This document shows, piece by piece, positions 4,831-58,471 of a stretch of 64,000 nt of DNA. Below the pieces are notes generated by a model. It ran no database searches. It saw only the letters and a list, made by a program, of their open reading frames with translations, and was not told where the DNA came from. The position numbers and the translations under genes were made by a program. Origin of the DNA: Marsupella aquatica (taxonomy: Eukaryota; Plantae; Marchantiophyta); the NCBI GenBank assembly GCA_973895155.1, contig OZ316895.1:17925780-17989779 (forward strand). Reading direction: 5' to 3'. The first letter of the stretch is position 1. Every line of letters begins with the position of its first letter.

Positions 4831-5201
4831 AGGAATTCAACCGCAGTCGGGCCCAACCTTAGCTGCCTTAACCTTCGGTTGCGAAGTAGCCTCCTTAACT
4901 AGGTGGATCGAGATGAAAGAAGAAACATTCATGTCCACCTTTGAAGTCTTTCCACCATTGCTTCACCGATACACACGGAGACAACCACGACACTTTACTT
5001 ACTTTGAGAAATCTTTCTTTATTTTCGGTAATTTTGTGTACAACGATGAGCTCATCGCCCTTATTGGGACAATGGAGCACCTCATCCCCAGGCTTCAAGG
5101 TAACACTGTGATTTCTGAGATATATAACCTACCCCTGGCCCCCCACTCCCAGTAAAAAATCTCTACCTCCTGTGAACGGACCCCCCTCTAGTACCCCAAG
5201 C

Positions 5202-30226: not shown

Positions 30227-30748
30227 CTAATTAACATATCTACTAGTCTCCGGTTTGGCCCTAACATTAATTATATCCACACAATGACTAAAGTTACTGG
30301 TAGGTGAAACTTTGGTAAGCATGTCTGCTACATTCTCCTCTGAAGCCACCTTCTCCAAAAACATCTGCTTCGTCTCAATCACCTCACGGATGAAGTGATA
30401 ATGAATATCAATGTGCTTTGTCCTAGCGTGGAACACAGGGTTCTTAGCCAAATGCAAAGAACTTTGACTATCACACAACAACACCGATCTTTCAGGTGAA
30501 ACACCTAAATCACTCACCAATCTCCGTAGCCAGATCAGCTCCTTGGTTGCCTCTCAGTCAGCCATGTACTCAGCCTCAGTAGTAGACAACGCAACACAGG
30601 ATTGAGTTGCTGACTTCCAGTTGATACAACCTCCACCCAGCATAAACACATAGCCTGTAGTAGACTCCCTGTTATCCAAGTTACCAGCATAATCTGAATC
30701 TACAAAACCTTCCAACTCTAATGTAGAGTCTGCTTTACCGTCAAATAG
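30227..30748 (-). pseudogene. Copia RNase H
   Basis: GFVDSDYAGNLDNRESTTGYVF, ALSTTEAEY, HARTKHIDIHYHFIRE, ADMLTK. Frameshift near 30555. Confidence 0.92.
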
Positions 30749-30789
30749 AATCATCAGCCTATTCATTAAAAGTGTATTATTATTTGATT

Positions 30790-31112
30790 TATGTACATTT
30801 GGGCAATGAAAAGTGTACTTTTGGGCTTGAAAAAGTGTACATTTGGCCAATGAAAAGTGTACATTTGGGGATAGAAAAGTGTACAATTGGCCTAAAGAGT
30901 GTACATTTGGGCAATGAAAAGTGTATATTTGAACATCAAAATAGGTACATTTGGCTTTAAAAGTGTACATTTGAGTACATTTGGCCTAGAAAGTGTACAT
31001 TTGAGTGAAAAAAACATACATTTGGCTTAAAAAGTGTACATTTAAGTGCATTTGGTCTAGAAAGTGTAGCTTTGAGTGCAACAAAGTGTACATTTGGCCT
31101 AAAAAGTGTACC
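30790..31112. repeat. Left subterminal repeat array AAAGTGTACATTTGG (about 13 copies)
   Basis: Quasi-palindromic motif repeated every 20-24 bp next to the left TIR. Confidence 0.9.
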
Positions 31113-31358
31113 AACTCTTATTATAATCATTTAAAAGAAAGGAATGAATAGAAAAATCTTTTTAATTATGCAAAAAAAGCAAACATTCATATTCATAACA
31201 ATCAAAAGTTTAGAAAATGAGGAGATAGTATAACTAACACTCAATGGCATGGTCTCACATTAAAACTATTAAAATAGTAAATAACTAGTAGGTACTTGTT
31301 ACTATCTAAGTAACTATCTATTTAATAATTATTATAGCTTCACAAGTAACAACTAAGT

Positions 31359-34300
31359 CTACTTGTCCATCCTTTGGAGATAACTTTGGATAGTTTGTAG
31401 AACATTTCGAGGAATCTTCAAACCTCTGCCCGCCATGTTTTCTTCTTTCATGCCAGATTTAAAACCATACATTGCAGAATTTGCATACTGCCAATGTTGA
31501 GCGTTCTCACCAAACCCTGGATCTCGCTCCCATGTCTTAGTGGACATGAAGCAGTTTAGATACCGTGCACTCTCAGTCACATCAAGTTTAGAGTGTTTAG
31601 GCCTCCACCATTCGACTGGAAACATTGGAGCATATTGTTGAGGCAGAGGAGGGTTTGTTGGAGATGTAGTTGGGACTTCATGCTTAGGGTCAACCGAACC
31701 CAAAGCTCTCACCAACCAGAAATGACCTCCACCATTTTTATTCTCCCAGTCATCCTCTGGTCGAAGAAATACAAAGTTCCCTTGACAAATATCCTGTAGG
31801 GGAATCCACCGTCCTTGTTCTCTCTCAGCTCGAGATCCAACAAATGGTGCCGCTTGATCTTCCATCTCTTCCAAGACCTCATTTTGAAGAGCCGTCATCT
31901 CCGCATTCTCCTCATCTTCACTTGGAGGACCACTTTGATCCGGTTGGTTGACCTTGTAACCAGTGCCATGGTTAGTCTTAGGCCAAAATCCATTTTTCAA
32001 GGGAAATTGAGTACTTCCCTCCCCTTCTAGTGCAAGCCCATTTGTCAACAACTCCACAATTCTCTCCCAATATTTCACAAGAGGAAATCTTTCCTTATAT
32101 GCTATAGATGTCTCATCAGTGCAACTCCTTCTCAAAAAATCAAGGTACTTGGTAAGAAATGGGATAATCTCTTCAGATTTTTTGTGTATCTCTCCAATGG
32201 ATTTAGCTAAGGGCTCTCCACTAGGTAAAAGAAGGGAATTTGTTGTCAGATCTGTTGCCCAAATGCACCTTCCACCAACTGGAGCCCAAGCTTGCTTTAC
32301 ATGGGACTTATACTGAAATATTGGTACATTATCTCTCATAGAGAAAAGAAATGATACAGGTTTTGAGTGACCTTGAATATCTTTAACGTTGAAAGTTTGA
32401 AGATATTCTTTGTAAGATGCAACTTCTTGTATCAATCTGGGAACTGGATGAATGCTCTCACATTCCCAAACCTCTGCCATAAGAGCAAGGAGAGTTGCAA
32501 CTTCCTTGTGCTGAACTTGATATGATACCTTCGAAAAGAGTGCATCAACATCTTCGTGCGTATGACCAACCATAAGAAAAGACATTTGAACAGTTTCAAA
32601 TACTCCTCTACTCACAAGCTCACTACAAAATGCCATGATAGTCTGGTTTTTGTTATCCTTTGCTGAGTTATCCATTTGCAATGTTAGGTGCCTTGGCAAG
32701 GGCTTGAAAGATGGACTGCCTTGTTCCCCATGCATGTCCCCTCCTTGATCCTCACCAAGTTGGGTGGAGACCGTCTCCGTCTGACTCTCGGCTGCATCTT
32801 CAGAACCAATATACCTATTCATTGGAATACTCTTTGGTTCCAAATATCCCTTAAAAAATGCATCAAAGTCAAGAAGGGCTTGAAAGAAAGGTCTATGAGG
32901 TTCCAAATAAAGGCCATCCAACATGTCACCTGTCTTGTCTCCATTGTACTCTTCAAGGTCTCGAAGACACTTAGCCAAGGATGTCACCGTGAAATTGGCA
33001 TCTCCTGGCCAAAGGCCAGTGACACTAAAGTGTGCATAGACTCCTGGATCCCTTCTGTGGGTCAACATCCCTGTCAGAGCAATAGGTAGCGGCATCCCAT
33101 GACCCGAAAGCGATTTAGGAGTACTGACCATTTTTGGAATCCACGTCTTTGCTTGATCCATCTTGTCGTGAATGATGCAAAGATATTCCCCTGGATGTTG
33201 CTTAGCCATCACTCGATGAGCATAGTAAACATATCTACGTGACATTTGCTCACGAAGATGTTGCGCTCGTTTTTCTTCAATTTCAGCACGTTCTTTTTTC
33301 CTTCTTTCTCGCATCAAACTATCTTTGTATTCACAACAAAGAGTACACTTGGCAAATGCACCATCTTTATGGAAACTGAAGTTTGCGAATGATTTGCTCC
33401 AAATCTTGTACAGAGTATTCTCTGTAACTGGAGGAAGCCCCTCTTCCTTCATCTTTGTTCTCACATCTTCCAAAATCTCCAGCTTCTTGTAACATGCTGG
33501 AAGACGATATTCAGTGGAGTCTGTCCCATGAGCCCCAGCATAAGGTATATGAGGCATGGGCTCTGCATTTCGAGTCAAAAAATCCTCCAACAGAGCTCGT
33601 GCATGCAAGGTATTTGACCTTGTTTTCATGGAGCCCGTGTTTCCATGGAACCCAATTTTGCAGCCCTCCACATATCTCCTTTTGTAGTCATAATATTTTG
33701 TGTGGCTAAAGCCATGGATGATTGCAAATGCATGTCTACATACGACCATACCCTTGAGAACATGGTGCCCCTTATCACGAACATCATCTTCTCTGTAGTG
33801 GAAGAGGTTGAAAATGTGTGATGTTTTTGACTCACTAGACATCCCGTGAAATTCTATCCGAATATCTTCTATGTCTTCTCTTGGCATAGTCAGACAACAT
33901 TTCTGCTTGCAACAATTCTCTCTTTTAATTTCATCAATCGAAGCTTCCGTTGTTTTTGAAACTGCCTTGGTTTCCAATAGCCTTCTCTTCTTTTCAATCG
34001 GATCTACATGAGTCCTCTTGTTGAAATTGTATGGCCTTGTGCGCAGCATTCCCCTATCATTTACATTTGGATAGAGATCATCCCTATCCACCGACTCCAT
34101 CCTCTCTGAACCTTCAACCAAAATGTCCGACAAAAATTTCCCATTTGCAAGTAGTTTTGTTGAATCAATTCGCCACCGAACCAAAGTAATTACTCCCCTA
34201 TGGAAGTTGGGAAAGTATTGTGATTCCACCACATCTTTCACAGCAATCCCTACATGGTCCTCACCAAGCATTTCATCGTCAACCGCCGCCGTTTCTTGAG

Positions 34301-35102
34301 GCACAGTGATGGTCCCCGTGGCAACCCTATTGGTTCGATCTGAACCGATGTATAGTTCGACCAACTCTGACATCCAATTTGACCATTGGAAATAGTCACA
34401 ATTAGTTTTAGAAATTTCAACTGAGGGAGACTCCACAACAAAACTCCGCTCTATGTTGATATCATCACCCGCATCCTTCTTTGAGAAACTCTTTCTACTT
34501 CGGACATCTGCCACGTCCCAGAGAACCCATGAGTCTTTTGCCTCGTCAATTGTTTCAGCCCCACTGTGTTTGTAAGGTAAAACCCTACTCCCATGAATGA
34601 CATCAGTGACCCTCACACTGATCCGTGATTCACCAAGTAAAATGTTGTGACATCTTTCCATTGGATTTGTATTGAAAACAACTCCAAGGGCTACACAACA
34701 CCCAAAGATGAACATTTCAACCTCATCCCCTTGCCTCGGAGTGGTCGATGAGTCCTCCTCTACAATTGGATTTTTCTCCAAATTACTCTCGGGTCTATTT
34801 GAACAACTACCTACACTAATGCGTTTTTGAGAATTTGTTGTCGTGGATAGATATGCGCAAGACAAATCCCAAATAACGCAAGAATCAATGGCATCAAAAA
34901 GGTTTTCTGCCCGAGGCATCGGAAATGGTAGTTTTGTGGTTCGGTCAAAAACTTTCTCAATGAGAACTCCCATTCGATTCTCTCTCAACAATATCTTTTG
35001 AACACTATCTTGCGGGTTGACTTTTTGAACTGTCCCGCTCGCAACATCGTAACCATCATTTGTCAATATCACATTGTCTCCTCTCAAAAATATTCCGGTC
35101 AT
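31359..35102 (-). CDS. Transposase, Sola-like/DUF7869-type DDD family, 1247 aa, intact
   Basis: Candidate catalytic motifs IIHDKMDQAK, LQMDNSAKDNKN and FLMVGHTHEDVDALFS. Cys/His clusters (CCKQKCC, VCRHAF…HG, AKCTLC). Three N-terminal repeats of VA.GTV…LGE…V.V..V…W resembling TNP1/En/Spm (Transposase_23) domains. Confidence 0.85.
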   Translation of the reverse strand: MTGIFLRGDNVILTNDGYDVASGTVQKVNPQDSVQKILLRENRMGVLIEKVFDRTTKLPFPMPRAENLFDAIDSCVIWDLSCAYLSTTTNSQKRISVGSCSNRPESNLEKNPIVEEDSSTTPRQGDEVEMFIFGCCVALGVVFNTNPMERCHNILLGESRISVRVTDVIHGSRVLPYKHSGAETIDEAKDSWVLWDVADVRSRKSFSKKDAGDDINIERSFVVESPSVEISKTNCDYFQWSNWMSELVELYIGSDRTNRVATGTITVPQETAAVDDEMLGEDHVGIAVKDVVESQYFPNFHRGVITLVRWRIDSTKLLANGKFLSDILVEGSERMESVDRDDLYPNVNDRGMLRTRPYNFNKRTHVDPIEKKRRLLETKAVSKTTEASIDEIKRENCCKQKCCLTMPREDIEDIRIEFHGMSSESKTSHIFNLFHYREDDVRDKGHHVLKGMVVCRHAFAIIHGFSHTKYYDYKRRYVEGCKIGFHGNTGSMKTRSNTLHARALLEDFLTRNAEPMPHIPYAGAHGTDSTEYRLPACYKKLEILEDVRTKMKEEGLPPVTENTLYKIWSKSFANFSFHKDGAFAKCTLCCEYKDSLMRERRKKERAEIEEKRAQHLREQMSRRYVYYAHRVMAKQHPGEYLCIIHDKMDQAKTWIPKMVSTPKSLSGHGMPLPIALTGMLTHRRDPGVYAHFSVTGLWPGDANFTVTSLAKCLRDLEEYNGDKTGDMLDGLYLEPHRPFFQALLDFDAFFKGYLEPKSIPMNRYIGSEDAAESQTETVSTQLGEDQGGDMHGEQGSPSFKPLPRHLTLQMDNSAKDNKNQTIMAFCSELVSRGVFETVQMSFLMVGHTHEDVDALFSKVSYQVQHKEVATLLALMAEVWECESIHPVPRLIQEVASYKEYLQTFNVKDIQGHSKPVSFLFSMRDNVPIFQYKSHVKQAWAPVGGRCIWATDLTTNSLLLPSGEPLAKSIGEIHKKSEEIIPFLTKYLDFLRRSCTDETSIAYKERFPLVKYWERIVELLTNGLALEGEGSTQFPLKNGFWPKTNHGTGYKVNQPDQSGPPSEDEENAEMTALQNEVLEEMEDQAAPFVGSRAEREQGRWIPLQDICQGNFVFLRPEDDWENKNGGGHFWLVRALGSVDPKHEVPTTSPTNPPLPQQYAPMFPVEWWRPKHSKLDVTESARYLNCFMSTKTWERDPGFGENAQHWQYANSAMYGFKSGMKEENMAGRGLKIPRNVLQTIQSYLQRMDK

Positions 35103-35289
35103 TCCTATAACGTATTCACCTGCACAATTTTAAATGTAAAGTATTAGTTAAGAATGGTCCCAACTAGGAAGCACATAGGTGTCAACCCTCTCCAAGGACA
35201 GTGCGCATATCGGGATATCCCCATCAAGCAAAATAATAGGTCCCCAAAAAGTCCCTATCTAGCCCTAAGATCCCTGATCCCAATTTAGA

Positions 35290-35902
35290 CGTCAGATAGG
35301 GATGATCCCTGTCCAAACGACGGATAGGGTGTCTGTCAGTGTCCAAACGGCGAACAAGGATCATCCCTGCCTAAACGGCGGATAGTGTCTGTCACTGTCC
35401 AAAAGGCGGACACGCCTGATCCCTGTCCAAATGGTGGATCGGGTCTATTCCCTGTCCAAACAACTGACAGGGATGATTCAAGGAAACTTTTCATATTGGG
35501 GTCCAATCAAGCAAATACCTCAAACGGCGGACAGGGATCATCCGGAGAACGACCGCGGACACGGATCCCTATTGAAAGGGTAGACAGGGATCATCCCTAT
35601 CAAAACGGCGGACAGGGACCATCCCTATCCAAATGGCGGACAGGGATCATCCCCATCCAAACAGCGAATATGGATCATTATCCAACCAGAGGATCCAAAC
35701 GGCGAATACGGATCATTATCCAACCAGAGGATCCAAACTGTAGAGGATCCAATAAAGTGCTATAGTTCATATGGTCCTCTACAGTACTCTACGGTGGACA
35801 GGGATCATCCCTATCCAAATATTGGACAGGGATCATCCCTATCCAAACAGCAGATAGAGATGATCCCTATCCAAATAGCAAACAGGGATGACCCCTGTAC
35901 GG
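35290..35902. repeat. Array of palindromic GGACAGGGAT(C/G)ATCCCT(G/A)TCC repeats
   Basis: About 13 copies of varying completeness, many spaced 28-29 bp apart, upstream of the transposase. Confidence 0.85.
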
Positions 35903-37009
35903 ACAATTGACTCTACACACGAATTTAATGTTTGAGAAAAGAACGGTTGGATTGAGATTATCCCAATCGTGAGTTGGGCTGGGATTTTTTCACTTCAACC
36001 TTAACTTAGATATAGTAATTCCTAAATTTGCGGATATCAATGGAATATGCTACAATTCTATAATTAGGTTTAAAGTTACCTGTAATGGAAATGATTCTTG
36101 AACCCAAAACTCAATTTAGTTTATGTTGTCAAACCAAGGATTAAAATACTGTGTTGAAGGGGTAGTTATCAGTAACCTGGTAAACTAAATGCTTCAGGGG
36201 TGTGGAAGAAATTAAAACTAGATGTTCTGTCTGGAAAACAAGAGTGTCTCAATGGGGCTCCGTAATGAACGGACCTGGTTGAGGAACAGAACAAAAATCT
36301 AGAAATGAAAATACCAAATGAGGACCAGCCGGACAACCCCAAGTATCTTATACCAGTTGTTGAAGATCGCCCTTATGGATAAGGCGATGCGTGATCAGCC
36401 TTAAGCAACGGCGAGTGGATTAGGTCGGGCGACGCACTTTAGGGCAGCCGTGCATTTAGGGTTTTCCACTCGCCTCGGCCTCCCACGTGTTTAGTGTGCC
36501 TTGCCTCGCCTCGGGGGGGGGTAAAGGAGGCAGGAGGTCCCACTTGGGCCTCATTCTTCATTCCCTCCTCGCTCCTCGCTCGCTCTCCTCCTTGCTCGCT
36601 CTCCTCCTCGCTCGCTCTCCTCTCTCCTCTCTCCTCCGTCCGCTCCTCCTCTTCTCCACTCCTGCTCTTGCGCTCCTTTGCTCGCTCCTCCGCCTCATTA
36701 TCTTCCAATCTCCTTCACTCCGACGCCTTTGCACTCCTTCGCTTTGCCTCCGCACTAAAGTTTATCCCCATAGCCGCCACGTTAATTGCCCTAGATCTAA
36801 CGCTCTGCAATCCTCCACGTGTCCATAAGGCCACGTGTCACACGATGGAGCCATCCAGACCTATTCCAGTGTGTCTCATCAGTGAGCCAACAGAGGAGAC
36901 AGACCTCTCATCCATTGAGGACATGGTGGAGACGGCCCTCGAGGATTCCAGAGCCTTTCAATCGCTCAATCCAAGTGAGTATCCCAGTAACAAGTTGAAT
37001 ATTTGTGTG

Positions 37010-37412
37010 GTGGACAGAGATGATCCCTGTCCAAGTAGAGTCCAAATAGAAGATAGTCATCTTTATTAGGAATTGGACAGAGATGATCCCTGTCCAAGTA
37101 GAGTCCAAATAGAAGATAGTCATCTTTATTAGGAATTGGACAGAGATGATCTCTATCCAAATGGATGGAGATCATCCCTGTCCAATTGCATAGATATCAT
37201 TTATTTCCAAACTGACGATAGAGGATGTCCTATCAGACGATGCTGAGGACCTTTATTAGGAATTGGATAGAGATGATCCCTGTCCAAGTAGAGGATAGAG
37301 ATGATAATAACGATCGTCAGTATCCTCTCATCGAACAGAGATGATCTTTATTACAAATTGGACAGAGATCATCGCTGTCCAAATAGAGGATAGAGATGAT
37401 CCCTGTCCAATT
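37010..37412. repeat. Second array of the same palindromic repeat (intron 1 of the ParB-MTase gene)
   Basis: GGACAGAGATGATCCCTGTCCAA variants, about 8 copies, including a 63-bp tandem unit. Confidence 0.85.
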
Positions 37413-39127
37413 TTTGTCAATTACAAAAGTAAGATTTCCAAACTAATATGCCTGGATGGGACTATTGCAGGGAGCTATCTAAATGCATTGAAACCACAGA
37501 TTTCAGACGCAGATTGCTCCGAGGGAGTCTTGTTGGAGCAGAGCAGAGAAGATTTTCGTTGGGGCCTTGAGTTCTCCAGAGTTGATTTTGATTTCCTTAG
37601 CACGTCAACGAGACGGGATCCCATTTTGTGCATAAAGGTCAGAACTGCAGATCAGGAGACTCTTGTACTCGGACCTGTAGTCTTCATTGGAATTGAAGGA
37701 AGAGGGTTTGTTTCCGTCATTTCTTGAGCTCCATGAAAGGATACGATGGGTTAAACTACATCTACCATCAAAGGCGTATTCTTCAGAATTCAATGTTGAG
37801 TGGTCTGCAGCTGGAGAACTTGGCTTGTTGGCAATGGGCTTTTTCCCTAAGTTGTATTCAACTCAAAAGGTGACTCTTGGAGTGAAGGGGATTCTTCCAC
37901 TTGACATCATGTATGGGTTTCAATATGTGAAGCTTAATATGCATAAACACCAAGGGAATTATACATTTCCGGTGACATGGATTTTAAATAATTTGCTTGA
38001 CAAGGCAGGATTCCTATCATCGGAATCAGGTGTTTTCCTTGACAAGAAAATTATATTTGCGGAGGAGTTTGCAATGGATAATGCAAAAAAGTGGGTAGAA
38101 TCATTAGCCAAGCCTACAAGTGTTGCACCAGTAGTGGTGAACAAGCCTCCAGTAGTTGTTAACAAAGAAGTTCCGAAGCCTAGAAAAATATCTCAGGAGA
38201 CAACAACCGGGACTGCAGGAACAACGGTCGGGACAGCCTCCAAACAAGTGGTAGGGAAGCAAAGACAAAGAGAGAAGAAGGAGCGCAAGAAAACTGAGAC
38301 ACAGCCGAAGGAACCCGAGAAGAAGCCAGTAAAGAAGAAACATAAAACTGACAAGACTATTGCGCGGTCAACTCCGACGGACGTACAGATGCTCCCAGAG
38401 GATGAGGGAGACAAACTTGATGCCCCGGAGGAGAAGAAGGTCTTAGAAGGGAATGATGTTCTCCAAAGAATAGAGCAGTACTATACTTTTGGGATAAATG
38501 AAATATTTTCTATTCCAGTGGAGAAAATTTATCCAGCTCCGGCAAGGTTATGTTACAGGATGCTCAACAGTGCCCATGTGAAGCACATAGCCGAATCCAT
38601 GGTGAAAAACCCTGGACATGAACCTCACGTTGCGGACCTTCTTCCTTACAATCCAAAACTTAGAAAGCTGCTTCATTTTGACAGCACGGAGAACGACCGC
38701 AAAGACCTTCTTGCAGGAGTGAAGAAAGGCGAGATTGTTTTCCTTGCCGTCAGTGGGCAACATTCTGCTAGGGCGGCCAAATGGGTTCTTGAGTGGGCCG
38801 AAACTGATGCCAAGCTCACAGTTTTGGCAAAAAAGTTAAAATATAGGAAGGCTAGATTATTGTCAGACCTTACGCCATCGGCTATACTGGTTGAGCACTC
38901 AATGAGATCAAATGCCATCAATTCTTCGATGGTGTTTCAATCGTGCTTCAAAGATACAATTGTTCATGCAAGAAAACAATTCCTTGAAACTGGAAGACCA
39001 AGAAAGCCAAAGCACGGGGACAACAAATCAAACGCCCAAGAGAGTCAAAAATTTCAGGTGAGAAACATTTTTCTTGTCTCTGTCCAAGAGTGTGACCGTC
39101 CATTACATTGATTTTAGTTCAATATGT

Positions 39128-39322
39128 TTTTGGTTATGACTTGGATGGAGATGGTCTCTGTCCAAGAGTGAGACCTTCTATTCTGTAGATTTTACTTCAT
39201 TCTACTTTTGGTTATGGCTTGGATGGAGATGGTCTCTGTCCAAGAGTGAGACCTTCCATTCTGTAGATTTTACTTCATTCTACTTTTGGTTATGGCTTGG
39301 ACGGAGATGGTCTCTGTCCAAG
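39128..39322. repeat. 78-bp tandem repeat (about 3 copies) in an intron, each containing the palindrome variant TTGGA(T/C)GGAGATGGTCTCTGTCCAA
   Basis: Copies at about 39141, 39219 and 39297, inside the GT-AG intron 39058-39395. Confidence 0.85.
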
Positions 39323-41924
39323 CAAGCGATTGTGTGTTGTCAAATCTCATTGATTGTAGATAACTTACAACATTCTCCCTAATTTTTGACTGTAGGATTA
39401 TCTGGCATTGGCAAGGATGACCATGGGGAGAAAAGACTTGAAAAATGTATACTGGTTACTTTTTGCCGAGAATGATCTTTTCGAGTTATGGCGGTTAGTG
39501 TGCCAGATGTGGATTGATGGAAAACTTCCTGATGGGGCTGGTACACAGGGAAACAAAAGGTCCGAAAAGGCGATAACCGTCGCCATGTTTCGTTGTTTTG
39601 ATGGTGAAATCTCAAATAGAGATTTGACCAGAATTTTGAACAAGGTGAAGTCGGGTCAGATTTTATTGAAGAAAGATCCGACTAATAAGTCAGATGTTCC
39701 AGCGATGGAGGAGTTTGCAAAGGAGGTGAAGATATTGATCAAATTGAAGTCTCTTATTGGAGATTACTACTTCAAGAAGGATCCAAAACACTTCCCAGCA
39801 GATACTGATTGGGCTAAAGTGATTGAAGTCCTCCCATTATTGGGTCCCGATTCGGAGTTGAACAGGTGCCGAAGAGCAGCTGGCGATGTATGGTTGACAA
39901 ATTTGTTGAAGTCGAATCATACAAAGGAGAGTGAGATATTGCCAATGACATTGGTGATGCGTCTAGATGATATTTACTATCAAAAGTTTGGCGGTGGGAC
40001 AAGTTCTCGGACCCAGCCGTGGGTCACATTTTTTAGTAACAACCTAATGAAGACTGTGGATCCGGAGTCATTGGAAGAACAATCTCCAACATGCCCTCTT
40101 GCAATTGTTGATTTCAGCCGACTTCAGCAAAAAGAGTGGACTGAAGTTGAGATTTTGGTCCTCTTCCAATATATAGTATAGCTACCACGGAATCCTACCA
40201 TTGTTGTGATGATAACTGTCCATCCGGGTTATCTTGTACTGAATGTCCTAAGCGCTCTTCGTAAATTAGGACATTCAAAAACTCTGAGTATTCACATTGA
40301 GTATGGGAGTTATTACCGAGATGATCAACCTCACCCTCAGGACTCATGTTGGAAGGGAGGAATAGAAGAGGTTATCTTTGCCGGAATTTCTCGCGAGGAG
40401 AACGTCAGCTGGGATGAAGTGTTCAAGCCCAACCAAATGAAACCAAAATGGGTGTACGGTGAAAAGGATACTGATTTCGTGGTTGAGAAGGTCAAGGGAA
40501 AGGGAAAGGCCAAGGACGCGGAGGAGGAGTCATTGCATGAAGATCTAAAAAATATGATGACCCCAGAAGAGGCGGCAATCCTTCTGCACATGGCACCTCG
40601 ATTTGAGACTGTCGGCGCTCGGGGTGGGTGGGTGAATCCTCACGCCAAACCCACACGGATGATCCAAAAGATCATCCAAACACTGTCCGAGCCGGGGGAT
40701 TTGATTCTTGACTTTTTCTCTGGCGGTCAAGTGATGAAGGCATCCCTTTTTTCTCAACGTGAATGTTTTGTTTATTGTGACTCTCAACATGAGAGACATT
40801 TTGTGGAAGCATACGCTTCGTTCCTTTGTGAGAAGGTTCCCACCATCAAAGATCGTTATGATCGCTATGTCGGTGGAAGTTCTAGACATTGGGAACCCTC
40901 TTCTGCCGCTGTTGCTATTGAGGATGAATCAGATGGTGATCAAGAAGATGGAGCTGACCAATCAGTCAAAGACGATGGGCCATCAGAGGCATACGTGAAG
41001 AATTTGGATGACCAAGTTGGCGAGGGTGAAAATATTGACCTTGTGGACGACGATATGATTGTTGGATCTGCACCTTGTAGTTCACCAATTACAGATGCTG
41101 CCCCCATGGGCCCCAACGAGGGCCAATATGATGATAACTTGGATAGAGATGGTCTCCATCCACAAGTGTCTGGACAAGAGATGGAAGTTGATACTTTTGA
41201 AAAACTTTCTTCAAACAACCTTCTCAATCAAGGTGCGGAGAGGCATGGTGAGTCCAATGAACTCGACACATTGGGATTGAGACCACAGCCCATCCAAATA
41301 GCTTACATTCCCGTGAATGAAGCACGTGCATCCACGACTGCTGACAACCAGGCAGGTGCTTCAATTTGTCCCAATACACTCTTTTCCGCTTCTGATGACA
41401 AATTGGTGTTTGTTCGATCACAATCAAGAAGTCCCGTTATCCTTCCACTCTCAAAAAAGAAAGGGAAGAGAGTAGGATCAACTGGATATAAGTCACTTGA
41501 ATATGATTGTCAATGTTACGTGTGGAAAAGTGGACCCGATGTAGGAACTGAAGTTGCGTTGGATGCTGCTCAATCAATTTTGAACAATGACTCGTACAAA
41601 AAGCACAAGAAAGATCCAACTTATAGAAGTGGAGAATTGGGATTGATAACTCCGGTTTGGTCTGCACCTTATTGGGTAGAGGAGAGTACCTCCGATGTCA
41701 ATTATGAGATCCAACAAGAACTCGGTGATGATATCTTGATTGATGAATATGGATCGCATTGTTAGCCACTTGAGGTCTAGATTGAGCGATGTGACCTTAT
41801 CAATTTGATATAATATAGTCTGTATAATTATACTTCAAGTTTAACAATTAGAGCATCAGTATCAATATCCATCTCCTCTTTACGGTTTCTCAATGAATCT
41901 GATCAGTATGCAGATATATTTTCT

Positions 41925-43058
41925 TTGTGGTTGGCCACTTGTGTTGGATTGACAGAGATGATCTCTATCCAAACTTCAAATGTGGTTTTATCTCTAAGAT
42001 TGGTATTTGTTGCACTTGCAGAACCAAGACCTTGTTCCATCAAGCGCAAATTGCTGATTTTGGATCTTAACAAAATACTTTGGGATTCAGTTGAATTCCA
42101 AAGCAAGGGCAAATCCAGAAATGTTGTGATCCCAAGTGGAGTGCATTGGGATAGAAAAAATGGAATTAGTCGCATGTACACAGAAAGGCCAGGGCTCCAT
42201 GAGTTTCTAAAGTTGGTTTTTGACCGATTTGACGTTGCAATTTGGACATGTGCTGGGGTACATCGAACAGTGAAAATGCTGAACATGATGTTCACTCCTG
42301 AGGAGCGGTTGAAACTTAAGTTTGTATTCACACAAGTGGAAGCCTTTGACACAGGCATTCAAAGGCGTGACATTACAAACGGGAAGGCAAATGTGCTACT
42401 GAAGGATTTTCGGGTGGTATGGAGTGGATTTGGAAATCTATATGATGAAACCAACACCCTCCTTGTGGATGACTCCCCCCTTAAGGCATTTGCCAACCCA
42501 AGCATGACCGGACTATTTCTAGTGCCCTACACGCATGCCAATGGTGGAGATAATTTTCTTCTAACAATTCTTTGGCCTTGTCTTGAGAAACTATCCCATG
42601 CAAGTGACATTAGATGTTATCTTCTTCTTAACTCTCCACTGTGGTCTCTATTGCACATAAAGAGAGACAAGGTAAAAAATGAAATTACTTATGATCAACT
42701 TAGTAAGAGATGTGCAACAAAAATTTGGAAGTCACAGTTTACGCATAGTGTGTTGGACCTCAACAGCAATGAGATTCCTTGGAACGTGAAGCATCGTATA
42801 TGTAGTTTACGTCCTGAGGCAGAACTTGACGATGCACTTGTCACGTCACTTGCTAAAGCATTTGTAGGAAGGGACTATTCAGGTCCGCATAGAGAAAATC
42901 CCAGACACTTTTTGCGGGAGATTATAGCCATTAGGAACAACACCACCAAGTTTCAGCTCCCTGAAGATAAAGGGACTTGCAACCGTGACACTAGGGTAGA
43001 TAGTAAAGGAGACAGGGGCACGTGCTCAAATACACATTGTAAGGAGCACTTTGTTTAG
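41925..43058 (+). CDS. FCP1/NIF-family HAD phosphatase-like protein (true start probably via a splice acceptor near 42021)
   Basis: KLLILDLNKILWDS (motif I variant), ERPGLHEFL…FDVAIWTCA, LLKDFRVVW, TNTLLVDDSPLKAFANP. Confidence 0.85.
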   Translation: MWLATCVGLTEMISIQTSNVVLSLRLVFVALAEPRPCSIKRKLLILDLNKILWDSVEFQSKGKSRNVVIPSGVHWDRKNGISRMYTERPGLHEFLKLVFDRFDVAIWTCAGVHRTVKMLNMMFTPEERLKLKFVFTQVEAFDTGIQRRDITNGKANVLLKDFRVVWSGFGNLYDETNTLLVDDSPLKAFANPSMTGLFLVPYTHANGGDNFLLTILWPCLEKLSHASDIRCYLLLNSPLWSLLHIKRDKVKNEITYDQLSKRCATKIWKSQFTHSVLDLNSNEIPWNVKHRICSLRPEAELDDALVTSLAKAFVGRDYSGPHRENPRHFLREIIAIRNNTTKFQLPEDKGTCNRDTRVDSKGDRGTCSNTHCKEHFV

Positions 43059-43321
43059 AGATATGACTCATGTTAAGCCCCTTAGATAGAAGAAATACAT
43101 TGTAAATTTGGAGATAATTGTATATTATTTTATAATCTATTTGGAGTTATGTCATTTTGTTCACACATATTCAAGGGTTTATTTGTGCTGAAATGTTTTT
43201 ATAAGTATGATCTCTATCCTACTATTCTTTGTGAATTCATAAATAATGATCTCTATCCTATTATTCTTTGTGAATCAATAAATGATATAATATGTATTAT
43301 TTATTAATATAATACTTATAT

Positions 43322-43412
43322 GATTTGGCCTATAAAGTGTACATTTGGAGACCAAAAAGTGTACATTTGGGTTTCTTAAAGTGTACATTTGGGGACATGA
43401 AAGTGTACATTT
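43322..43412. repeat. Right subterminal repeat array AAAGTGTACATTT (4 copies)
   Basis: Same motif as the left array, in the same plus-strand orientation. Confidence 0.9.
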
Positions 43413-43467
43413 CAAGACTGATTTGTGAACAAAAGAAAAGACACTTTTAATGAATAGGCTGATAATC

Positions 43468-44966
43468 CCACAATCTAAGGTACCAGGGTTTGCCATAAAT
43501 CTACTCAAAATGCTAACGGCGTGGGCAATGTCAGGTCTAGTGCATGTCATTGCATACATCAAACTACCCACAACACTATCATAGGGAACCTGTTTCACGC
43601 CAGTCTATCACTCTCACTAGAAGGGCAATCATTTTTTGAGAGTTTAAAGTGGGAAGCCAATGGAGTACCAACTGGTTTTGCATTCTCCATCCCATACTTG
43701 GCAAGTACTTTCTCTAAATACTGCCTTTGAGACAACCATAATTGTCTCTGCTCCCTATCACGATGAATCTCCATCCCTAGAATCTTCTTGGCCTGACCCA
43801 AGTCCTTCATTGAAAACTCCTTACTCAACATTGCTTTTAGATGGGCAACATTAGACTTATTCTCAGCCAAGATTAGCATGTCATCCACGTACAGTGCCAG
43901 CACAATGTAACCAAAGCATGAGTAATTCTCCATCTCCTTCTTGTAAATACAACAATCATGTTCACTCCGTGTGAACCCCTGTGATAACATGAAGGAATCA
44001 AAATGCTTATTCCATTGTTTGGGACTCTGCTTCAATCCGTATAACGAGCGCAAGAGCTGACACACTAAGTGTCTGGTCTTCTTGTCAATAAAACCTGGAG
44101 GCTGAGCCATATAAATCTCCACATCAAGCAATCCATGCAGGAAAGCAGTAATTACATCCATTTGATCTAACTCAAGATCATAGAATGCCACAATTGCAAG
44201 TAAAACACGGATAGTAGCGAGTTTGACAATTGATGAGAAAATCTCTGTGTAGTCCAAGCCCTCCTTCTGGGTGTACCCTTTGGCCACAAGGCGTGCCTTG
44301 TAAGTGCCATCCTGCTTCTTCTTGTACAACCATCTACACGGAACCAGTGTCTTCCCACGAGGCATGTCCACTAAGCGCCAAGTTGAATTCTTCTTCAAAG
44401 AATTCATCTCCTTCAACATTGCCTCCATCCACTTATCCTTCTCTGGAGAGGCCATAGCTTCTTCATAGCTAGAGGGGTCTCCATCTTCAGTGAGCAATAT
44501 AACACTAGGATCATCGTTATGCTCAACAATGTGAACACGAGGATCTGCAAAACCAAATCTATCAGGGTGTTGGCCAAGATTGGCCCTTGTGGAGCGCCTC
44601 AATTGAGGAATTGCACCTCTACCAGAGGGACCAGCAGCTTCCTCAACACCATCAAGCTCCACGTAGTGGGTTCCTCCACCTGCTCCTCCTGATCATCCCG
44701 GGTTCTTGACAACCATTCTTCATCAAAAACAACATTTCTGCTCACAACTACCTTGCAATCGACAGGGACCCACAATTTGTAGCCCTTCTGCCCCAGACTA
44801 AAGCCTAGAAAAATACATTTCTTAGACTTGGGATCCAACTTAGACCTGTGTGTCTGCTCAATGTGAACATAGGCAGCACACCCAAAAACTCGGAGTCTAG
44901 AGTAATCAGTAGGTCTCTTATACCACAACTCAAATGGAGTCTGCATCAACTTACTACTGTGCGGTG
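43468..44966 (-). pseudogene. Copia integrase C-terminus and reverse transcriptase
   Basis: LRVFGCAAYVHI…SKLDPKSKKCIFLG, YKARLVAKGYTQKEGLDY, SLYGLKQSPKQW, LYVDDML, VGSLMYAMTCTRPDIA. Contains frameshifts, a stop and a small deletion. Confidence 0.93.
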
Positions 44967-47602
44967 TGTGACACGGGTAACGTGTCACTTGACCGAACCC
45001 AGGTCGTAGATTAGGACTTATACGGTCATTAGGACCGTAGCCATAGTGTAGAATAGCACGTATAGCCGTCTGTTGCCATTATGATTAGATTAGGAGTAGG
45101 TTAAGATGATCGAATCATTACGAGTTAAGGAAGGGATTATTACGCGCGACCGAGGTACGGTGGCGGCAGCGGAGTAAAAATCAGTTAGAAGAAACACGCT
45201 TGGACCGAGGTGCCAACTTCAGCTCGCTATCAATGACCAAAACGGCCTGGCCTTCTCACGCTCGGGCTCATCCTGGCACCTCCATAAGAGAGGAGCCGAT
45301 GGTGCTGCGGGCCATTTGCTCATGTCTACCTTTCTTTGACTTCGCGGACGTTGCCACCCACTCGCCCTGCTGATCAAATCGAGTCGACCTTTACAAGGAG
45401 ATTATCGAGGGAGAAGAGCGGAATGTGGCAAGATTTAGTTAGGACGAGCGAGGCCTCCACGAGACAGAGGACCAGCCGGGTGGGAACGCGGACTCAACGA
45501 ACCGGACTACGAGGTTAGTATGACCCTCACAGCCTTGGGATTTTGGACCTTGTTTGGCGAGGTAGGTGCTAAGTTCTCCGAGACTTACTGGTACTCTTGC
45601 CCCGAGAAATCCGCTTACGAACGAAGATACGCGAGGCTGGTGACCAAGGTAGCACTGGTTAATTGCGAAAGAACAGCCATCACCAAGGCTCAGCAGACAA
45701 TGGGAAGCGGCGCGTAATCTTACGTTCCTCGGGGAAAGCTCCAACGCCTTCAACTGGGATATGGCTACCCCGATATCACCAGTGCCTCAACCGATGACCA
45801 TCGGAGTACCGCCGAACCAGTCCCAAGTCCGTCCAGTAATCAACACGGAGTGTTCTTTGGGTTCCGAGCGAGCTAGTCCGCAACTCAAACAGTGTCCTTG
45901 TAAGCGGCCAAGGACTACGACGGCCCCCGAATCAACACAGACCGACGCCGCGCCTGCACCTGCCCCGGCAAACCCCCCGACCAACCAGACCCGATGGCCC
46001 CCGGATAACCCGAAGTCCAACTTATTACAGGTAATCCGCGTCCCCGAAGTGGTTTGGATCGCGATCAAGAAACTCGAACATGCAGACTATCTCAAGGAGC
46101 ATCAGTTGGAGCAGTTCGCCCACTTGCTATGGAGGCCGTGCGCCACCGGGCCGAAGGAGATTTGTGAGTTCATCTCCAATTTCGACACTGACGCGTCGAC
46201 CACCAAGGTTTCGGGGCAGGCCTTATCACTCACGGAGCATCGGTTAACGCAAATCTTCTGCCTACCAACCGGGCCGGTGCCGGTGGAAATCCGAATTTGG
46301 GATAAGGAGTATACGCCGCGACACTTCAAACCCGAGGGTAAGACGGACAACGGATACAAGCAGGGGGCGTGCACCAACTTAACCTGTATGGAGCGGCTTA
46401 ACTTCATACGGACTACCCTACACATGATTGAGCCACGATCCGAGATTTCCCTCTGCACGATCGTGCAGGTGGAACAGTACAAGCGACGAAACTGGGCCCA
46501 ATTCTTCTACCGAAGATTCTCGGGGGAGCTGAAGCGGGCTCAGGGTGGTATGGCTATTGGGGGGAAGACTTACTTAGGAAGTCATATCGCCATTATCCTC
46601 GCCTGGTACAAGGCACGGCGGGAGGCCAGAGGAAAAAATATGGCCACCTCAGCCTCGGGTAATGTCACCCCCGCCCCAGAGGAGGCAACCCCGACTACGC
46701 GGACTACCGTCCCTCGGGCAAACCCCGAGCCGGAAGCCCCGACTAATACTCCGCCACCTCCTCCTGTGGAAATTCCACCGCCCCCTTCCGTTGAGCCTCC
46801 ACTACCCGCAGTGCAACCACCCCCAATCCCTCCACCACCTGAAGATATCTTCCCCTCCCCAGCGCTGACTACAGAGGAGATCGTTGCTCCACCCGAGGAG
46901 CCACCGGTACCCGAGAGGATGGAGGACTACCAAGTAGCCCCGGGGACCATGGCCTACGACCTGGTCCAGAAGTTTAGCCAGACTATGTCTGGGGAGCTAG
47001 CAACATACATCGGACAACAAGTCTCGGCGTACTTTCAACCAGCCTTCTTCATGTTAGAGCACCAACCACGGATCGTAAGCCGCCTGGAAGAAGATCTCAT
47101 GGCGAAGGGGAATGAGATCGGGCGCCTCCAGATGTTGGTAGAGCACCTCGAGGAGGAGGCAACAACCCGACGCGAGGAGTTAGTCCGCACCGTCAAATAG
47201 AGGGACGGACTAAACCAGGAGCTAAGCGGAGCGCAAGTCGAACTCAAGAAGCTGGATGACACTGTGCTTCAATTACGCTCAGGGCAGCACAGCAGGTGGC
47301 TAGTCTCTCCGCCGAATGAGATAAATTGCTAGCACAGGACCAGATCCATCGCAACTCCATCGACCAGCTCAATTTGGAGGTAGCACGGCTCCAGACCAAG
47401 GTCGATGAAGCTGCAAATGAGGCGGAGGAGGCGGTACGGGACAACAAGGCCTTGCAGGACCGCATTACCCTGCTCATCCTCCAGCGGGGAAAACCTGGGC
47501 CCACCTCTAATCAAGGCAGCTCGAGGTCTCGTCCCGACAAGGGGACCAGCCTTGGTCCAACCACCTCACACACGTAAGGGGTGGTTAGCGAAGGGTGGAA
47601 GC
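44967..47602 (+). mobile_element. 5' part of an ORF-bearing large gypsy-type LTR inserted in the copia integrase, itself interrupted at 47603
   Basis: Starts TGTGACAC where the copia frame breaks. Promoter-like CATAAGAGAGGAGCCGAT (about 45283) matches TATAAAAGGGAGCCGAT of the 6981-10943 LTR. Carries a homologous ORF. Confidence 0.75.
45520..47577 (+). pseudogene. LTR-encoded accessory protein (fragmented: 45520-45717, 45761-47200, 47326-47577)
   Basis: Homologous to the 7875-10469 gene at the N-terminus (GFWTLF/RF*TQF), in the central domain and in the coiled-coil tail. Confidence 0.8.
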
Positions 47603-50600
47603 TGTGGTGCGTCCCATGGCTCCCTAAACCCAAGAAACCCCCCAGCTCAAGCCGATTCCCGCAGGTTTTGTGCTTGGCGAGGCCGTTTCCGCGGCTTAGC
47701 GGCATGGGACGCTGCTAACCTTCTACTACTACTATTAACATTTTACACACATATACTGGACAGATCCTTCATCGGGTCATGAGATACGTAGCCGGCCTAA
47801 TATAGGCCTTCCCCTGTCTTCCCCTGTCTTCCCCTCCGTCTTGTTAGGTATGTTTGGATTCCGCCGCCGGAATGATCCCCAATAGGCTTGGTTAAGCCGC
47901 TAAGACCTCTCTCAGCTCGACACATCCAACTCTTACTCCCCTGCTTACTTTCCTTCCTTCTGTTGATGTGGGCACTCTTCACACAAGTTAATGCGACACA
48001 CAAATAGCAAAATGACTCATTCTGACTGAGTCATACCATGCACTTGCCATACAAACAGTACATCTCATACACAAGTTCTGCGAACTAAGCCGTGAGGCCA
48101 ACTCTATTCAGCTCTTAGGCATGAGGAAACAAGAATATACACAAGGGTCACTGTATGACTAACCGAGAGCTTCTCGTACTACTTGATCCCAGCCCGGCTG
48201 GTGCAAACTAAAAACTTGCTAAAGAAGAGGCCCTGAGCTCCCCGCTGCCCAGGTACTTATCCTGGTAGTGGATCCGCCATTCTTTGCATCGTAAGCCTAA
48301 TCTACTTAACAGTAATCTACTTGCCCGAATCTACCTATGTACAGCAAGGCAGGAGCACAAGTGTTGCTCCTACCAGTGGGACCGCAATCCCACTAAGCTA
48401 AGTGTCAGGGCCGCTCCTGGTTCTGATCCTAATCCTAAACGTGGAGATCCGCGCCCGCCCTGCCCACTCACGCCTCCTCCCTCCACGTCCGCCCTCCCTA
48501 AAAGGAACGGCGCCCTTGCACCGTCACGACACCGGTGGTGGATCCTTAATGGACGCCCCCAACGCTTCCTCCTCAGCCACTGCCGTAGGCTCATTCCCTG
48601 ACAGATTACCTGCCCTTGACTGAGTCAACTCTCCATCGGCCTGATTGGGTCCACCATCGGCGTCGGCATCGGCTCGAGAATCGGTTACGGCCTCAGCCTC
48701 GGCTACGGTCTCCCCGGCCTGCTCAAGAGGCGGATCTGGAATACTGGCCTCCTTACTGAGTAGTTCGGCTTGGGCCGCACCATCCCTACCTGTGATCATA
48801 GCGGGATCTATTGCCGTATTCATGTCGGAGGATGGTGCTGGTTCTACCTCTTTGGTCACCACGGCTTGTGGAGTCGGATTACTCCTTGACCCTGAAGGTT
48901 TCCGCTTTTTCTTCTTTTCTGGTTCGGCAGCTGGTCCCTTCCCCTTCCCACTTACCTCCGGCACTGGTGCAGTTGGCGCGGCTTTTTCTTCGGCCAGTAC
49001 CACTCCTGGTAACTTGGTTGCCCCAATTGGAGTTGGGCCTGATGAAGACAAGCACCTAAATACTGCGGCTTGTTTCTTCAGCCGCTCCGTTTGGTTGTCG
49101 GCCCGCCGCTGGAGGTTCTCCATCTTCCTCGTGATTTCCTCCAACTCCTCCTGGGTCTCATCCAGGTCCTTGCGTGCCTCCTCTAGTTCCTTCTGGGCTT
49201 CCTCCCGTTCTTGTTTCAAGGTAGTCCTCTCCTCCTGGGTTGCTTTTAGCTCCTTGTCGAGCTCTGCAATGATGACAGACTCCATCTGGTTCATCTTGGC
49301 GTAAGTCTGTTCGAGCATCTCGTCCTTCTCCCTTAGGTCGGCCTTAAAGCTGGCCGTCAGGGACGCAAGCTCCTGCTGCAGCGCCATAATCCCTTGATAG
49401 GATTTCCCTAACTCGGCCTCCTTCTGCTCAAGGGCTCCGCGGATTTTCTCGAGCTCCCCTTTCAATGCCCATTCCTTTCTTTGGGTCTCCGCCATGGCCC
49501 GGCTGTTGGCTGTTATGTGGGCCTCCTCTGTATTCTTCAGCTCTTGCTTCCACTTCTCCCTCTCTTTGATCGTGTCGGCCAACTCTTCCTGTGTCTGAGT
49601 CAGTTTATCCTTGATATTCTGATTATCAGCCTGCGCGGTGTCCAACTGCCCCTGCATGATGTTCAGCTCATGTCGTTTAATCCGCAGTTCATCTTGGGCT
49701 TTCTTGGCCGCCCTTAGATCTTCAATCTCGGCTTCCATCCTCCTAAGCCGCCGAATGACCTCGTCCTTCTTGCTTCTCTCTAAAGCCACCGCTTCTTCTA
49801 ATTGGTGCTTCTCCAACTGCTCCCTATGGAAAAAGGGTCCTACCTCCAACTCCTCTCCAAAGATGCCGAGCGCAAGTTCCCCACACATCTCACCATACTC
49901 CATGGCTCTATTCTTAGCGTAGGTGGAGTAAGTAGAAGTGATCGGCATCGCCCATCGCGGCCTCTGCTCCCAAGCCGTCCTGCGGATCTCTTCAATCGTG
50001 GCTAGAGGTTTGCTTCCTTTTTTGGCTAGCCGCCTGATGTCCTCCGGCCAATCTCCTCCTGGTAAATCCTTTTCCTTAGCCAGGGCGGCCTCCTCCTCCT
50101 GCTTGATTCGCTCCTGAAATTCCTGCACCGTCTGTTTTATGCCGTCGAAGCTCGGGGGAGCAACATCTGGTGGGGGAGACTCAGGGCTACTCTGCTGGTT
50201 GGGGTCCCCTCGCACTACCCTTGGAAGTGTGGGGACAAACCGGCCACAGGTCCTTACTCCTGGAACGTGATGGTCCGACCCATAGCCGGAATTATCATGG
50301 TTGCAGTCCTCCACTGCCTCCTCTACCTCTTGGACGTCCGGCTTCTCCCTCTCCTCTTCGTCGGTAGGAGCTTCAGGCAATTCTGCCTCAGATTCGGAGC
50401 TTGAGGTTCCCACGTACATTCGAACACTTGGCTTGGATTCCGGCCTGATTCTCTCCTTGTCTCCAGCAAAGGGGTTTTCTCTTGTGAGCCGGTGTAGGCC
50501 TACCTCTGTAGTAGTGTCCTGCATTGTTGCCGTTGCCGTTGTTGTTGCCGATGCCGATTTCTTTTCTTTTTCCAGTAGTTTCAGCAGACTCTGCATGCCT

Positions 50601-55200: not shown

Positions 55201-55526
55201 GCTGGACTAGCCGAGTCGGTCCCTTCCTTGGTGTCCATAGATTGTCCCCTTACCGGTCTATTCAGTTTTGAATTAGTGGTCGGCTCCCCTTCCTGCCTTG
55301 GCTCTGGATCGTGTCTGTCCATCTCATCCACCTCTTGCTCCTGAGAGTTAGGCCGTTGTGCTCTCTCGGCTTCTAATAGGGCCTCAATTTGTTCTGCCCT
55401 CGTAATCGGCTTGTATGCCGATCCCTTGGTATTTAATTCCTTGCCGATGATCGATGGCGTTGTGAACCCTGCCGGCTCTGCCACAATGCCTGCAGAAAAT
55501 CCATTGTCCCTGCTACTGCTCCCCAC
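52260..55526 (-). CDS. pol: Pol (RT-RNase H-integrase), expressed by probable -1 frameshift from gag-pro
   Basis: RVCQDYRKLN, MPFGLCNAP, FIDDF, VDVSGFCIG, HGEEAGGH…CDHCQ, WGIDYIGP, SDRGTHF, WLGPFRV. Confidence 0.96.
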   Translation of the reverse strand: MGSSSRDNGFSAGIVAEPAGFTTPSIIGKELNTKGSAYKPITRAEQIEALLEAERAQRPNSQEQEVDEMDRHDPEPRQEGEPTTNSKLNRPVRGQSMDTKEGTDSASPAEIPVYGGMRLERLEAELDPNLKKQINMIQARQYRKLDLGEGRELNLGRNLAPELEKEIRDLLIEFQDVFAWSHQDLKGVDPTLGEHRIDLMLGAKSFRQPIRRMNPKYSLLVKTEIDKLVEAGFITPVLHSNWVSPIVIVPKKAGPDGKPKIRVCQDYRKLNEATLKDHFPLPFTDMVLDMVASHELYSFMDGYSGYNQIRIRQEDQIKTAFITEWGIYVFNRMPFGLCNAPAMFQRLMVNIFHDYLRKFMEIFIDDFAVFGKASKHAKYLRKTFMRCREVGLKLHPDKCFFAVTEGVLLGHKVSRKGIEIDKGKLAVWLDIMQPKNIKDVRSFLGCIGYYRRFIKDFAKLALPLTNMLKAGADFEPTPERVTAVVELKQMLVEAPVMIAPDWNKDFHVFVDVSGFCIGSVLSQLDEKGRDHPIYFASRQLADAERNYSTTEREALGVIYSCKKFRHYLLGYKVIFHTDHESLKYLVNKPDLTGRVARWILLLQEFDYELRIKPGKLHANADFFSRITGKPATDCIDDRFPDEELFVVEIAGTWYPEILQFLSTSRLQPGLSREQAAVFVRKVRQYQCIKGILHKHGINGTIQRCLEKREVKRVLRAMHGEEAGGHFAPVTTSKKILNAGYWWPTLHKDVYQFIKQCDHCQRAGGPRASTRHPLHPILPLAPFEKWGIDYIGPLKPLTHPRRNKYIILATDYATKWVEARPTTKDDAITTARFMYEQIFTRYGAPLELVSDRGTHFLNDIISRLNEQYLVKHRPTTPYHPKANGLTERANGIIGKILNKTVAQNKLDWDDKLFAAVFAYNLAYKSTTGHTPFFLTFGQEALVPMQLEIPTFQVTIEERASAEESLKEQEYRLEALEEARMISAERVEYRQNIMKQQYDKRLKVVSIHTGDLVLLYDSRYSRFPGKLYTRWLGPFRVTMMFPNGSVQLANITGEVYPVRIHYDRLKKYYMDEDEVVREDASQLSGELCDA
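52272..52284 (-). other. Polypurine tract
   Basis: AAGTGGGGAGCTA immediately 5' of the 3' LTR on the minus strand. Confidence 0.75.
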
Positions 55527-58426: not shown

Positions 58427-58471
58427 TACCTACGCTTCCGTTCTAACTTCATATCTCACGGCTTAAGAAAT

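Follow-up and report, generated by a model that had tools for sequence, protein, structure and literature searches.

A Sola-like DNA transposon of the liverwort Marsupella aquatica with a ParB–methyltransferase-fold gene, a phosphatase-like gene and a private palindrome array

Sola transposons have been described, in the part of the source available to us, as elements with a 4-bp target site duplication (TSD), a DDD transposase, terminal inverted repeats (TIRs) of 11–1124 bp and sizes of 2 to more than 15 kb (PMC10741241). One of them, the giant Sola1-1_Ec32 of Ectocarpus, is 21.5 kb long with a 4-bp TSD and carries on the opposite strand a gene of 1104 aa with ParB-like and N4C/N6A-methyltransferase (MTase) domains, for which the authors propose self-binding and self-modification (PMC12477816). 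MTases fused to ParB and a helix-turn-helix (HTH) are also reported from chlorophytes and chytrids in the accessible part of PMC4738411. Here, we analyzed an element at 30753..43463 of a 64,000-nucleotide stretch of the liverwort Marsupella aquatica (hereafter the window; assembly GCA_973895155.1, contig OZ316895.1, positions 17,925,780 to 17,989,779 of the forward strand). This element is a real, well-preserved, multi-copy Sola-like cut-and-paste transposon. Besides its transposase gene, it contains a gene with ParB-like and MTase-like domains, a phosphatase-like gene and an array of palindromes. The results are compared below with an earlier interpretation made without database searches (the sequence-only reading); all positions are those of the window.

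Structure of the element and its transposase

The element is 12,711 bp long and is bounded by perfect 23-bp TIRs (ATCAGCCTATTCATTAAAAGTGT; 30753..30775 on the + strand and 43441..43463 on the − strand) with no mismatches between the ends. This repeat had exactly two matches in the 64-kb window and none in 100 shuffles. The TSD, AATC, is present on both flanks (30749..30752 and 43464..43467), and the insertion target was a copia element on the − strand, of which the RNase H side lies at 30227..30748 and the reverse transcriptase/integrase side at 43468..45078 (RVT_2, 228 bits). The copia frame NPGTLDCGILFDGKAD was restored when the element and one TSD were taken out. In four of four public runs, uninterrupted copia relatives bridged positions 30747 and 43465 with equal spacing, indicating empty sites and hence a TSD length of 4 bp. 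The perfect TIRs, the AATC duplication and the restoration of the copia frame, all claimed in the sequence-only reading, were thus borne out. With its 4-bp TSD, DDD transposase, TIR length and total size, the element lies within the ranges given above for Sola.

Next to the TIRs are subterminal arrays of a AAAGTGTACATTTG-like motif on the + strand, with 11 copies, mostly approximately 22 bp apart, at the left end (30810..31096) and 4 copies at the right end (43334..43413). Judged from their sequence, these repeats are likely transposase sites.

The transposase gene occupies 31359..35102 on the − strand (ATG at 35102) and encodes a DDD transposase of 1247 aa that matched Pfam DUF7869 with 148 bits. 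Residues D646, D811 and D851 were invariant in 16 aligned relatives, and the claim of an intact transposase held, the open reading frame (ORF) being uninterrupted. Residue 683 is R in the window copy and G in other copies. The homologues (n = 34) included 16 named proteins of Riccia sorocarpa with 34–51% identity and one of Branchiostoma. A metagenome scan returned a single locus only, of 1.8 kb, and viral contigs scanned with the transposase, the phosphatase and the palindrome gave no matches.

The cargo genes and the palindrome array

The two cargo genes, described in the sequence-only reading as divergently transcribed, lie in tandem on the + strand; they are divergent only relative to the transposase gene on the − strand. 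The first of them, the ParB–MTase gene, is intron-split. A putative short first exon, predicted from the sequence by an ATG followed by a GTGAGT donor, lies at 36847..36974. The next exon (37500..39057; 5′ boundary approximate) encodes an N-terminal domain, a basic linker and a ParB/Srx domain (approximately 38476–39000, with ISGQHS at 38749–38766). It is followed by a phase-0 GT-AG intron (39058..39395), defined by its splice sites and containing three palindromes; its splice junction, FQ/D, agrees with the annotated Calypogeia proteins P0036 and P0063. The last exon (39396..41765) encodes a helical domain, a beta-class amino-MTase fold (approximately 40005–40850, with motif IV, DFSR, at 40110 and motif I, DFFSGG, at 40710), an acidic tail and a conserved DEYGS end. 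With the first exon only putative, the full protein is estimated at approximately 1,300 aa.

In the window, this gene is broken by an in-frame TAG (40179–40181) and an extra base near 37720 that shifts the frame. Both were checked in public runs, of which X1 and X2 may stem from the source study of the window and X5 and X6 carry the codes of other organisms. The TAG was a sense codon in every covering contig of four out of four runs (X1, X2, X3 and X5), and the extra base was absent at full depth in X1, X2, X5 and X6 and at approximately 90% of the depth in X3. Since other copies have neither the stop nor the extra base, the ParB–MTase gene is dead in the window copy and intact in the family. 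Both domains that the sequence-only reading had assigned to this gene were confirmed, although here the gene is damaged and intron-split. Their fusion is also found in the annotated Riccia proteins P0110 and P0146, which contain both domains in one chain. Homologues of the cargo were found in Calypogeia fissa, and relatives of the ParB–MTase protein with 22–47% identity are present in named liverwort genomes. Taken with the Riccia homologues of the transposase, the Calypogeia proteins point to a host among liverwort-like land plants. A search for longer fused forms of the MTase, itself weak, found none.

The ParB domain was undetected by Pfam, PHROGs, NCBIfam or PDB sequence searches, and only fold and Atlas searches found it. 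When cluster representatives were searched by HMMER, the ParB exon had 103 relatives at E ≤ 0.001. A structural model built from 53 sequences had a predicted local distance difference test score (pLDDT) of 90, and its top 10 Foldseek matches were all Noc, ParB, PadC or Srx, with a best E of 2e-3 and none below 0.001. Aligned with PadC, the model gave a moderate Z of 7.4 (root-mean-square deviation (rmsd) 3.2, 97 residues aligned), and all matches down to Z 4.7 were ParB/Srx-like. Modelling thus supports a ParB/Srx nucleotide-binding fold in the first cargo protein.

The MTase domain was modelled by reading through the TAG of the window with X, at a pLDDT of 70. The model matched CcrM (Z 15.7, rmsd 4.5, 207 residues aligned) and MboIIA (Z 15.6), with a Foldseek E of 7e-7, and the Pfam N6_N4_Mtase score was 27.1 against a cut-off of 26.7. 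The fold is permuted, with motif IV before motif I, as in beta-class amino DNA methyltransferases, and a beta-class amino-MTase fold is supported by the model for this second domain. Motif I reads D(F/L)FSGG in all 10 homologues long enough to include it.

A feature absent from the sequence-only reading is an array of a 23-bp palindrome, TGGAYRGRGATNATCYCTRTCCA. At ≤3 mismatches it has 20 sites, all within the element, and none was found in 100 shuffles; a looser search (≤4 substitutions) counted 22 sites in the element against none in the remaining 51 kb of the window. As the consensus was built from element copies, the contrast between inside and outside is the real test. Nine copies at ≤4 substitutions are clustered in the divergent intergenic region (35293..35970) and seven lie at 37011..37409, probably in the first intron. 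Single copies are located within the transposase coding sequence (34068..34090), within that of the MTase gene (41140..41162) and just upstream of the phosphatase-like exon (41949..41971). The observed/expected CpG ratio was 0.71 in the palindrome-rich intergenic region versus 0.36–0.39 in copia, a contrast too weak to serve as evidence because promoters are often CpG-rich.

The second cargo gene is represented by a NIF/HAD phosphatase-like coding region at 42021..43058 on the + strand. The protein matched Pfam NIF with 59.5 bits (cut-off 21.8), and its closest solved relative was UBLCP1 (E 8e-8). WT, K and DD motifs are present, and motif I (42063–42071) reads DLN, within DLNKIL, i.e., DxN in place of DxD. 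The FCP1 C-terminal domain (CTD) phosphatases have the motif DxDx(T/V). The HAD assignment of the sequence-only reading was borne out, but the NIF/HAD-like protein is not FCP1 proper, as it scored far under the FCP1 cut-off (TIGR02250, 19.2 vs. 135.25 bits); the best HAD profile was HAD-IIID (54 vs. 192 bits). The link to the RNA polymerase II CTD, which had been drawn through FCP1, is therefore unsupported. Atlas neighbours of the protein were NIF clusters of streptophytes and large viruses.

From the sequence, the 5′ end of the phosphatase-like gene could be either an ATG of its own at 41959 or a splice junction with an upstream exon; the latter may apply, as only approximately 250 bp separate the MTase stop from the phosphatase-like region. 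The donor next to the MTase stop does not allow an in-frame MTase–phosphatase fusion, since a stop codon arises when it is spliced to the acceptor at 42022. A second donor farther upstream, at 41356, shares its frame with this acceptor, and an MTase–phosphatase splice form is possible. A (Q/E)AGAS motif at 41344–41364 was conserved in the window and in proteins P0035, P0036 and P0039 amid unalignable sequence. It overlaps a CAG/GTG donor in frame with the phosphatase acceptor and is possibly a conserved alternative splice site.

Copies of the element were examined through contig depth in public runs, which is not equal to copy number. In X2, a single-copy flank contig with the same sequence as the window had a depth of 14.5, as against 248–455 for contigs within the element, which reach from its left end to the phosphatase. 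X5 contained a close subfamily with depths of 104–149 across the transposase, ParB and MTase, as well as a subfamily of approximately 90% identity, in which a transposase contig (depth 346.5) was matched by one of depth 344.1 that runs from the end of the MTase into the start of the phosphatase. In X6 (organism C), 30 of 30 bins were covered. The cargo was covered at very low depth only in X7 and X8, which were not counted as evidence.

More distant relatives came from a scan of prokaryotic genome contigs, which yielded 13 transposase loci, 11 of them shorter than 7 kb. The two long ones, L009 and L011, are on contigs filed under bacterial metagenome-assembled genomes or bins that are apparently eukaryotic DNA. 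Both have TIRs, 4-bp TSDs and a ParB-like ORF divergent from the transposase. L011 is intron-bearing, measures 10.9 kb (2868–13774) and has the TSD ATAA and the TIR AACCACTTCCAATT (14/14); 32 copies of its own palindrome, TTGAAATTTCAA, are present, near both ends, and its ParB-like ORF matched at 78% in hhalign (E 2e-5). A possible degenerate methylase exon was also seen in L011. L009 measures 13.75 kb (3760–17509) and has the TSD TTAG, with a weaker ParB match (hhalign 17%). The matching high depth of cargo and transposase contigs, together with the divergent ParB-like gene at two of two long distant loci, supports the multi-gene element put forward in the sequence-only reading.

Proposed role of the cargo and other features of the window

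Our preferred explanation, to which we give roughly even chances, is that the ParB–MTase-fold protein binds the palindromes of its own element and thereby sustains the expression or mobility of that element, the MTase being probably non-canonical or dead and the NIF/HAD protein likely a later-acquired helper. The transposase would act on the TIRs and the subterminal repeats. The ParB protein, probably a dimer, would load onto the palindromes in the shared promoter and the introns, as VANC does on the repeats of VANDAL, a Mutator element. The MTase fold appears to retain its S-adenosylmethionine-binding end (DFFSGG and an acidic residue after the next strand); because it lacks PPY, it would more likely engage or shield DNA than write canonical N6-methyladenine (6mA) or N4-methylcytosine (4mC). 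If there is a methylation target, it would be the symmetric GAT-N-ATC centre of the palindrome. With DxN, the phosphatase-like protein would more likely be a weak enzyme or a phospho-binding adaptor than a CTD phosphatase. The window copy, in which the ParB–MTase gene is dead, would depend on intact copies acting in trans. Self-marking or anti-silencing, suggested in the sequence-only reading, is plausible with the palindromes as the likely target, but both predicted cargo enzymes have altered catalytic motifs.

Observations on the MTase, the ParB domain and the linkage of the cargo weigh against this explanation. The motif (D/N/S)PP(Y/F/W) was found in none of the 12 homologues, and the window reads DFSR, which weakens any marking mechanism. 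Rather unlikely in our view is an MTase that remains active with its altered motif (D-F-S/G/T-R) and places 6mA or 4mC on the element, e.g., at GATNATC, as a self mark against host silencing. Such activity would agree with the Asp at the catalytic position and the following Arg, both of which are found in the window as well as in its 8 close homologues (4 clusters), with the conservation of motif I and with the preservation of the entire fold. Functional 4mC enzymes occur in liverworts (Marchantia preprint), and the same reading was proposed for Ectocarpus Sola1-1 (PMC12477816). Apart from the missing PPY, the inactivity of the amino-MTase domains borne by DIRS1 transposons, as given in the accessible part of PMC4738411, argues against it.

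In its box, the ParB domain has GQHS, with H in all 53 sequences and Q in 49 of them. That of the cytidine triphosphate (CTP)-hydrolysing clamp of bacterial ParB is GxxRxxA (GERR), so that a CTP clamp is not implied here. An HTH for sequence-specific binding was not shown, the helical region having generic structure matches only (Z approximately 5). A role of ParB and the palindromes in transposition or autoregulation rather than anti-silencing, i.e., compaction, pairing of the 12.7-kb element or promoter repression, is a minority view to which we give little weight. Members of the ParB family bridge and spread on DNA, and Noc, ParB and KorB were the top fold matches; the palindromes are concentrated at the shared promoter, and those of L011 lie near its two ends. 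ParB cargo is also typical of giant elements, according to the portions available of PMC12477816 and bioRxiv 2025.02.11.637652. The ends of the window element, however, bear a different motif, its palindromes being internal, and such a role leaves the conserved MTase fold unexplained.

None of the public-run contigs reached across the whole element or revealed a further insertion flanked by a TSD of its own, so that the evidence for the genes travelling together is indirect. Among the locus tags listed, those of the Riccia ParB–MTase were not adjacent to transposase tags. Seven of 18 variants in the cargo were synonymous (2 of 6 in the phosphatase-like gene) versus 9 of 17 in the transposase; these counts, from 35 of the 40 variants listed among 718, are a small and biased subset and give no clear purifying selection. 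The phosphatase-like gene was absent from both L009 and L011. That this gene, and possibly all of the cargo, is a host-derived neutral passenger (Pack-type) appears improbable to us. This absence, the few synonymous changes sampled, the lack of a clear start of its own and a closest Atlas cluster consisting mostly of Streptophyta NIF proteins would fit a passenger. Against this, the gene has an uninterrupted frame of 345 codons that retains HAD motifs II–IV, is joined to the end of the MTase in the high-depth subfamily of approximately 90% identity, and is covered in organism C. The ParB–MTase gene itself is by far too ancient and too widely distributed to have been captured neutrally, and for it a recent Pack-type origin is contradicted by the divergent ParB-like gene at both long distant loci and by the 22–47% identical relatives in liverworts.

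A more far-reaching reading, which we regard as speculative and rather unlikely, is a three-part, self-addressed anti-silencing kit in a land-plant Sola lineage. ParB would read the palindrome, and a rewired beta-class MTase (D-F-x-R) would write or shield a mark other than 5-methylcytosine at GATNATC. The NIF phosphatase, captured and possibly joined to the same protein by splicing from 41356 to 42022, would alter a phospho-switch of chromatin or transcription on the element. If true, this would be another VANC-like system, unrelated to the first, and would provide a programmable tool for site-specific epigenetic changes.

Elsewhere in the window, direct repeats of 4.67 kb with 98.6% identity (47603–52271 and 58496–63154) surround a gypsy gag-pol on the − strand (52260–58429). 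They resemble very long long terminal repeats, each with a long ORF without a Pfam match, which encodes 1228 aa in one repeat and is split by a stop into 692 and 535 aa in the other. Directly after the second repeat, 63145–64000 is an inverted, 99.3%-identical copy of 53437–54292 (gypsy pol), which represents either a recent rearrangement or a nested copy. Further ORFs without a Pfam match, at 778–2655 (625 aa), 8205–10427 (740 aa) and 45653–47200 (515 aa), are probably accessory ORFs of retroelements. An inverted repeat pair of 268 bp with 95.5% identity (14091–14358 and 16607–16874; span approximately 2.8 kb) is possibly another TIR element.

Comparison with known systems

The combination of genes had been considered undescribed in the sequence-only reading. 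This is largely incorrect, since PMC12477816 already contains both the pairing of a Sola1 transposon with a ParB plus N4C/N6A-MTase gene on the opposite strand and the idea of self-modification; only for the phosphatase-like gene and the occurrence in a land plant did our searches yield no precedent. In a literature search that excluded most subscription journals and Repbase, neither a Sola element with an FCP1-like phosphatase nor a ParB and methylase on a DNA transposon in a liverwort was found, and moss Sola1 entries of Repbase may already hold such genes. The window element shares with Sola1-1_Ec32 the Sola class, the 4-bp TSD and the opposite-strand ParB plus MTase-fold gene. Sola1-1_Ec32 differs in its brown-algal host, its length of 21.5 kb, its imperfect 282-bp TIR and its AACCG termini; the main text of PMC12477816 mentions no phosphatase, FCP1 or palindrome. 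The AACC termini of L011 resemble those of Sola1-1_Ec32, whereas the window element ends in ATCAG.

The giant Plavaka (EnSpm) elements of the red alga Bostrychia, with PAG1-3, are alike in that their accessory genes include one for ParB and one for an N6A-methylase, and in their tandem inverted repeats, to which ParB is proposed to bind. As far as their accessible description goes, they differ by another transposase superfamily, by fusion of ParB to a 2-oxoglutarate-dependent oxygenase and of the methylase to SET, and by having no phosphatase (bioRxiv 10.1101/2025.02.11.637652). VANDAL/VANC of Arabidopsis is alike as a model, in which an element protein recognizes element-specific repeats, causes hypomethylation and counters silencing; it was proven experimentally, according to the part of PMC5735166 available, whereas for the window element it is a prediction, and no homology is claimed. 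Sola2-Fanzor1 resembles the window element in its short TIRs, its 4-bp TSDs and the presence of a second gene, and differs in its TnpB-like cargo (PMC3627910, in part). In fungal Starships, giant tyrosine-recombinase elements, DUF3723 is a conserved cargo, as stated in the portion available of bioRxiv 10.1101/2021.12.13.472469. The Atlas look-alikes of the ParB region (0.94–0.95) include DUF3723 clusters, with homology unconfirmed by alignment. Marchantia DN4MT1 carries TSPPY (Marchantia preprint), which the MTase family of the window lacks.

A precise 23-bp candidate target exclusive to the element offers material for a direct test, as do the intact sister copies and the high-depth subfamilies, of which there are at least two. 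An MTase without the canonical catalytic motif bears on how such accessory proteins work, and may bear on the persistence of bacterial-type amino-MTases in bryophyte genomes. Overall, the design of Sola with ParB–MTase is already known from the accessible text of the Ectocarpus study, as are ParB genes beside inverted-repeat arrays from that of the red algal Plavaka. What the Marsupella element adds is its occurrence in a land plant, a third gene of phosphatase-like type, a palindrome that could be defined and an MTase whose catalytic motif has been lost.

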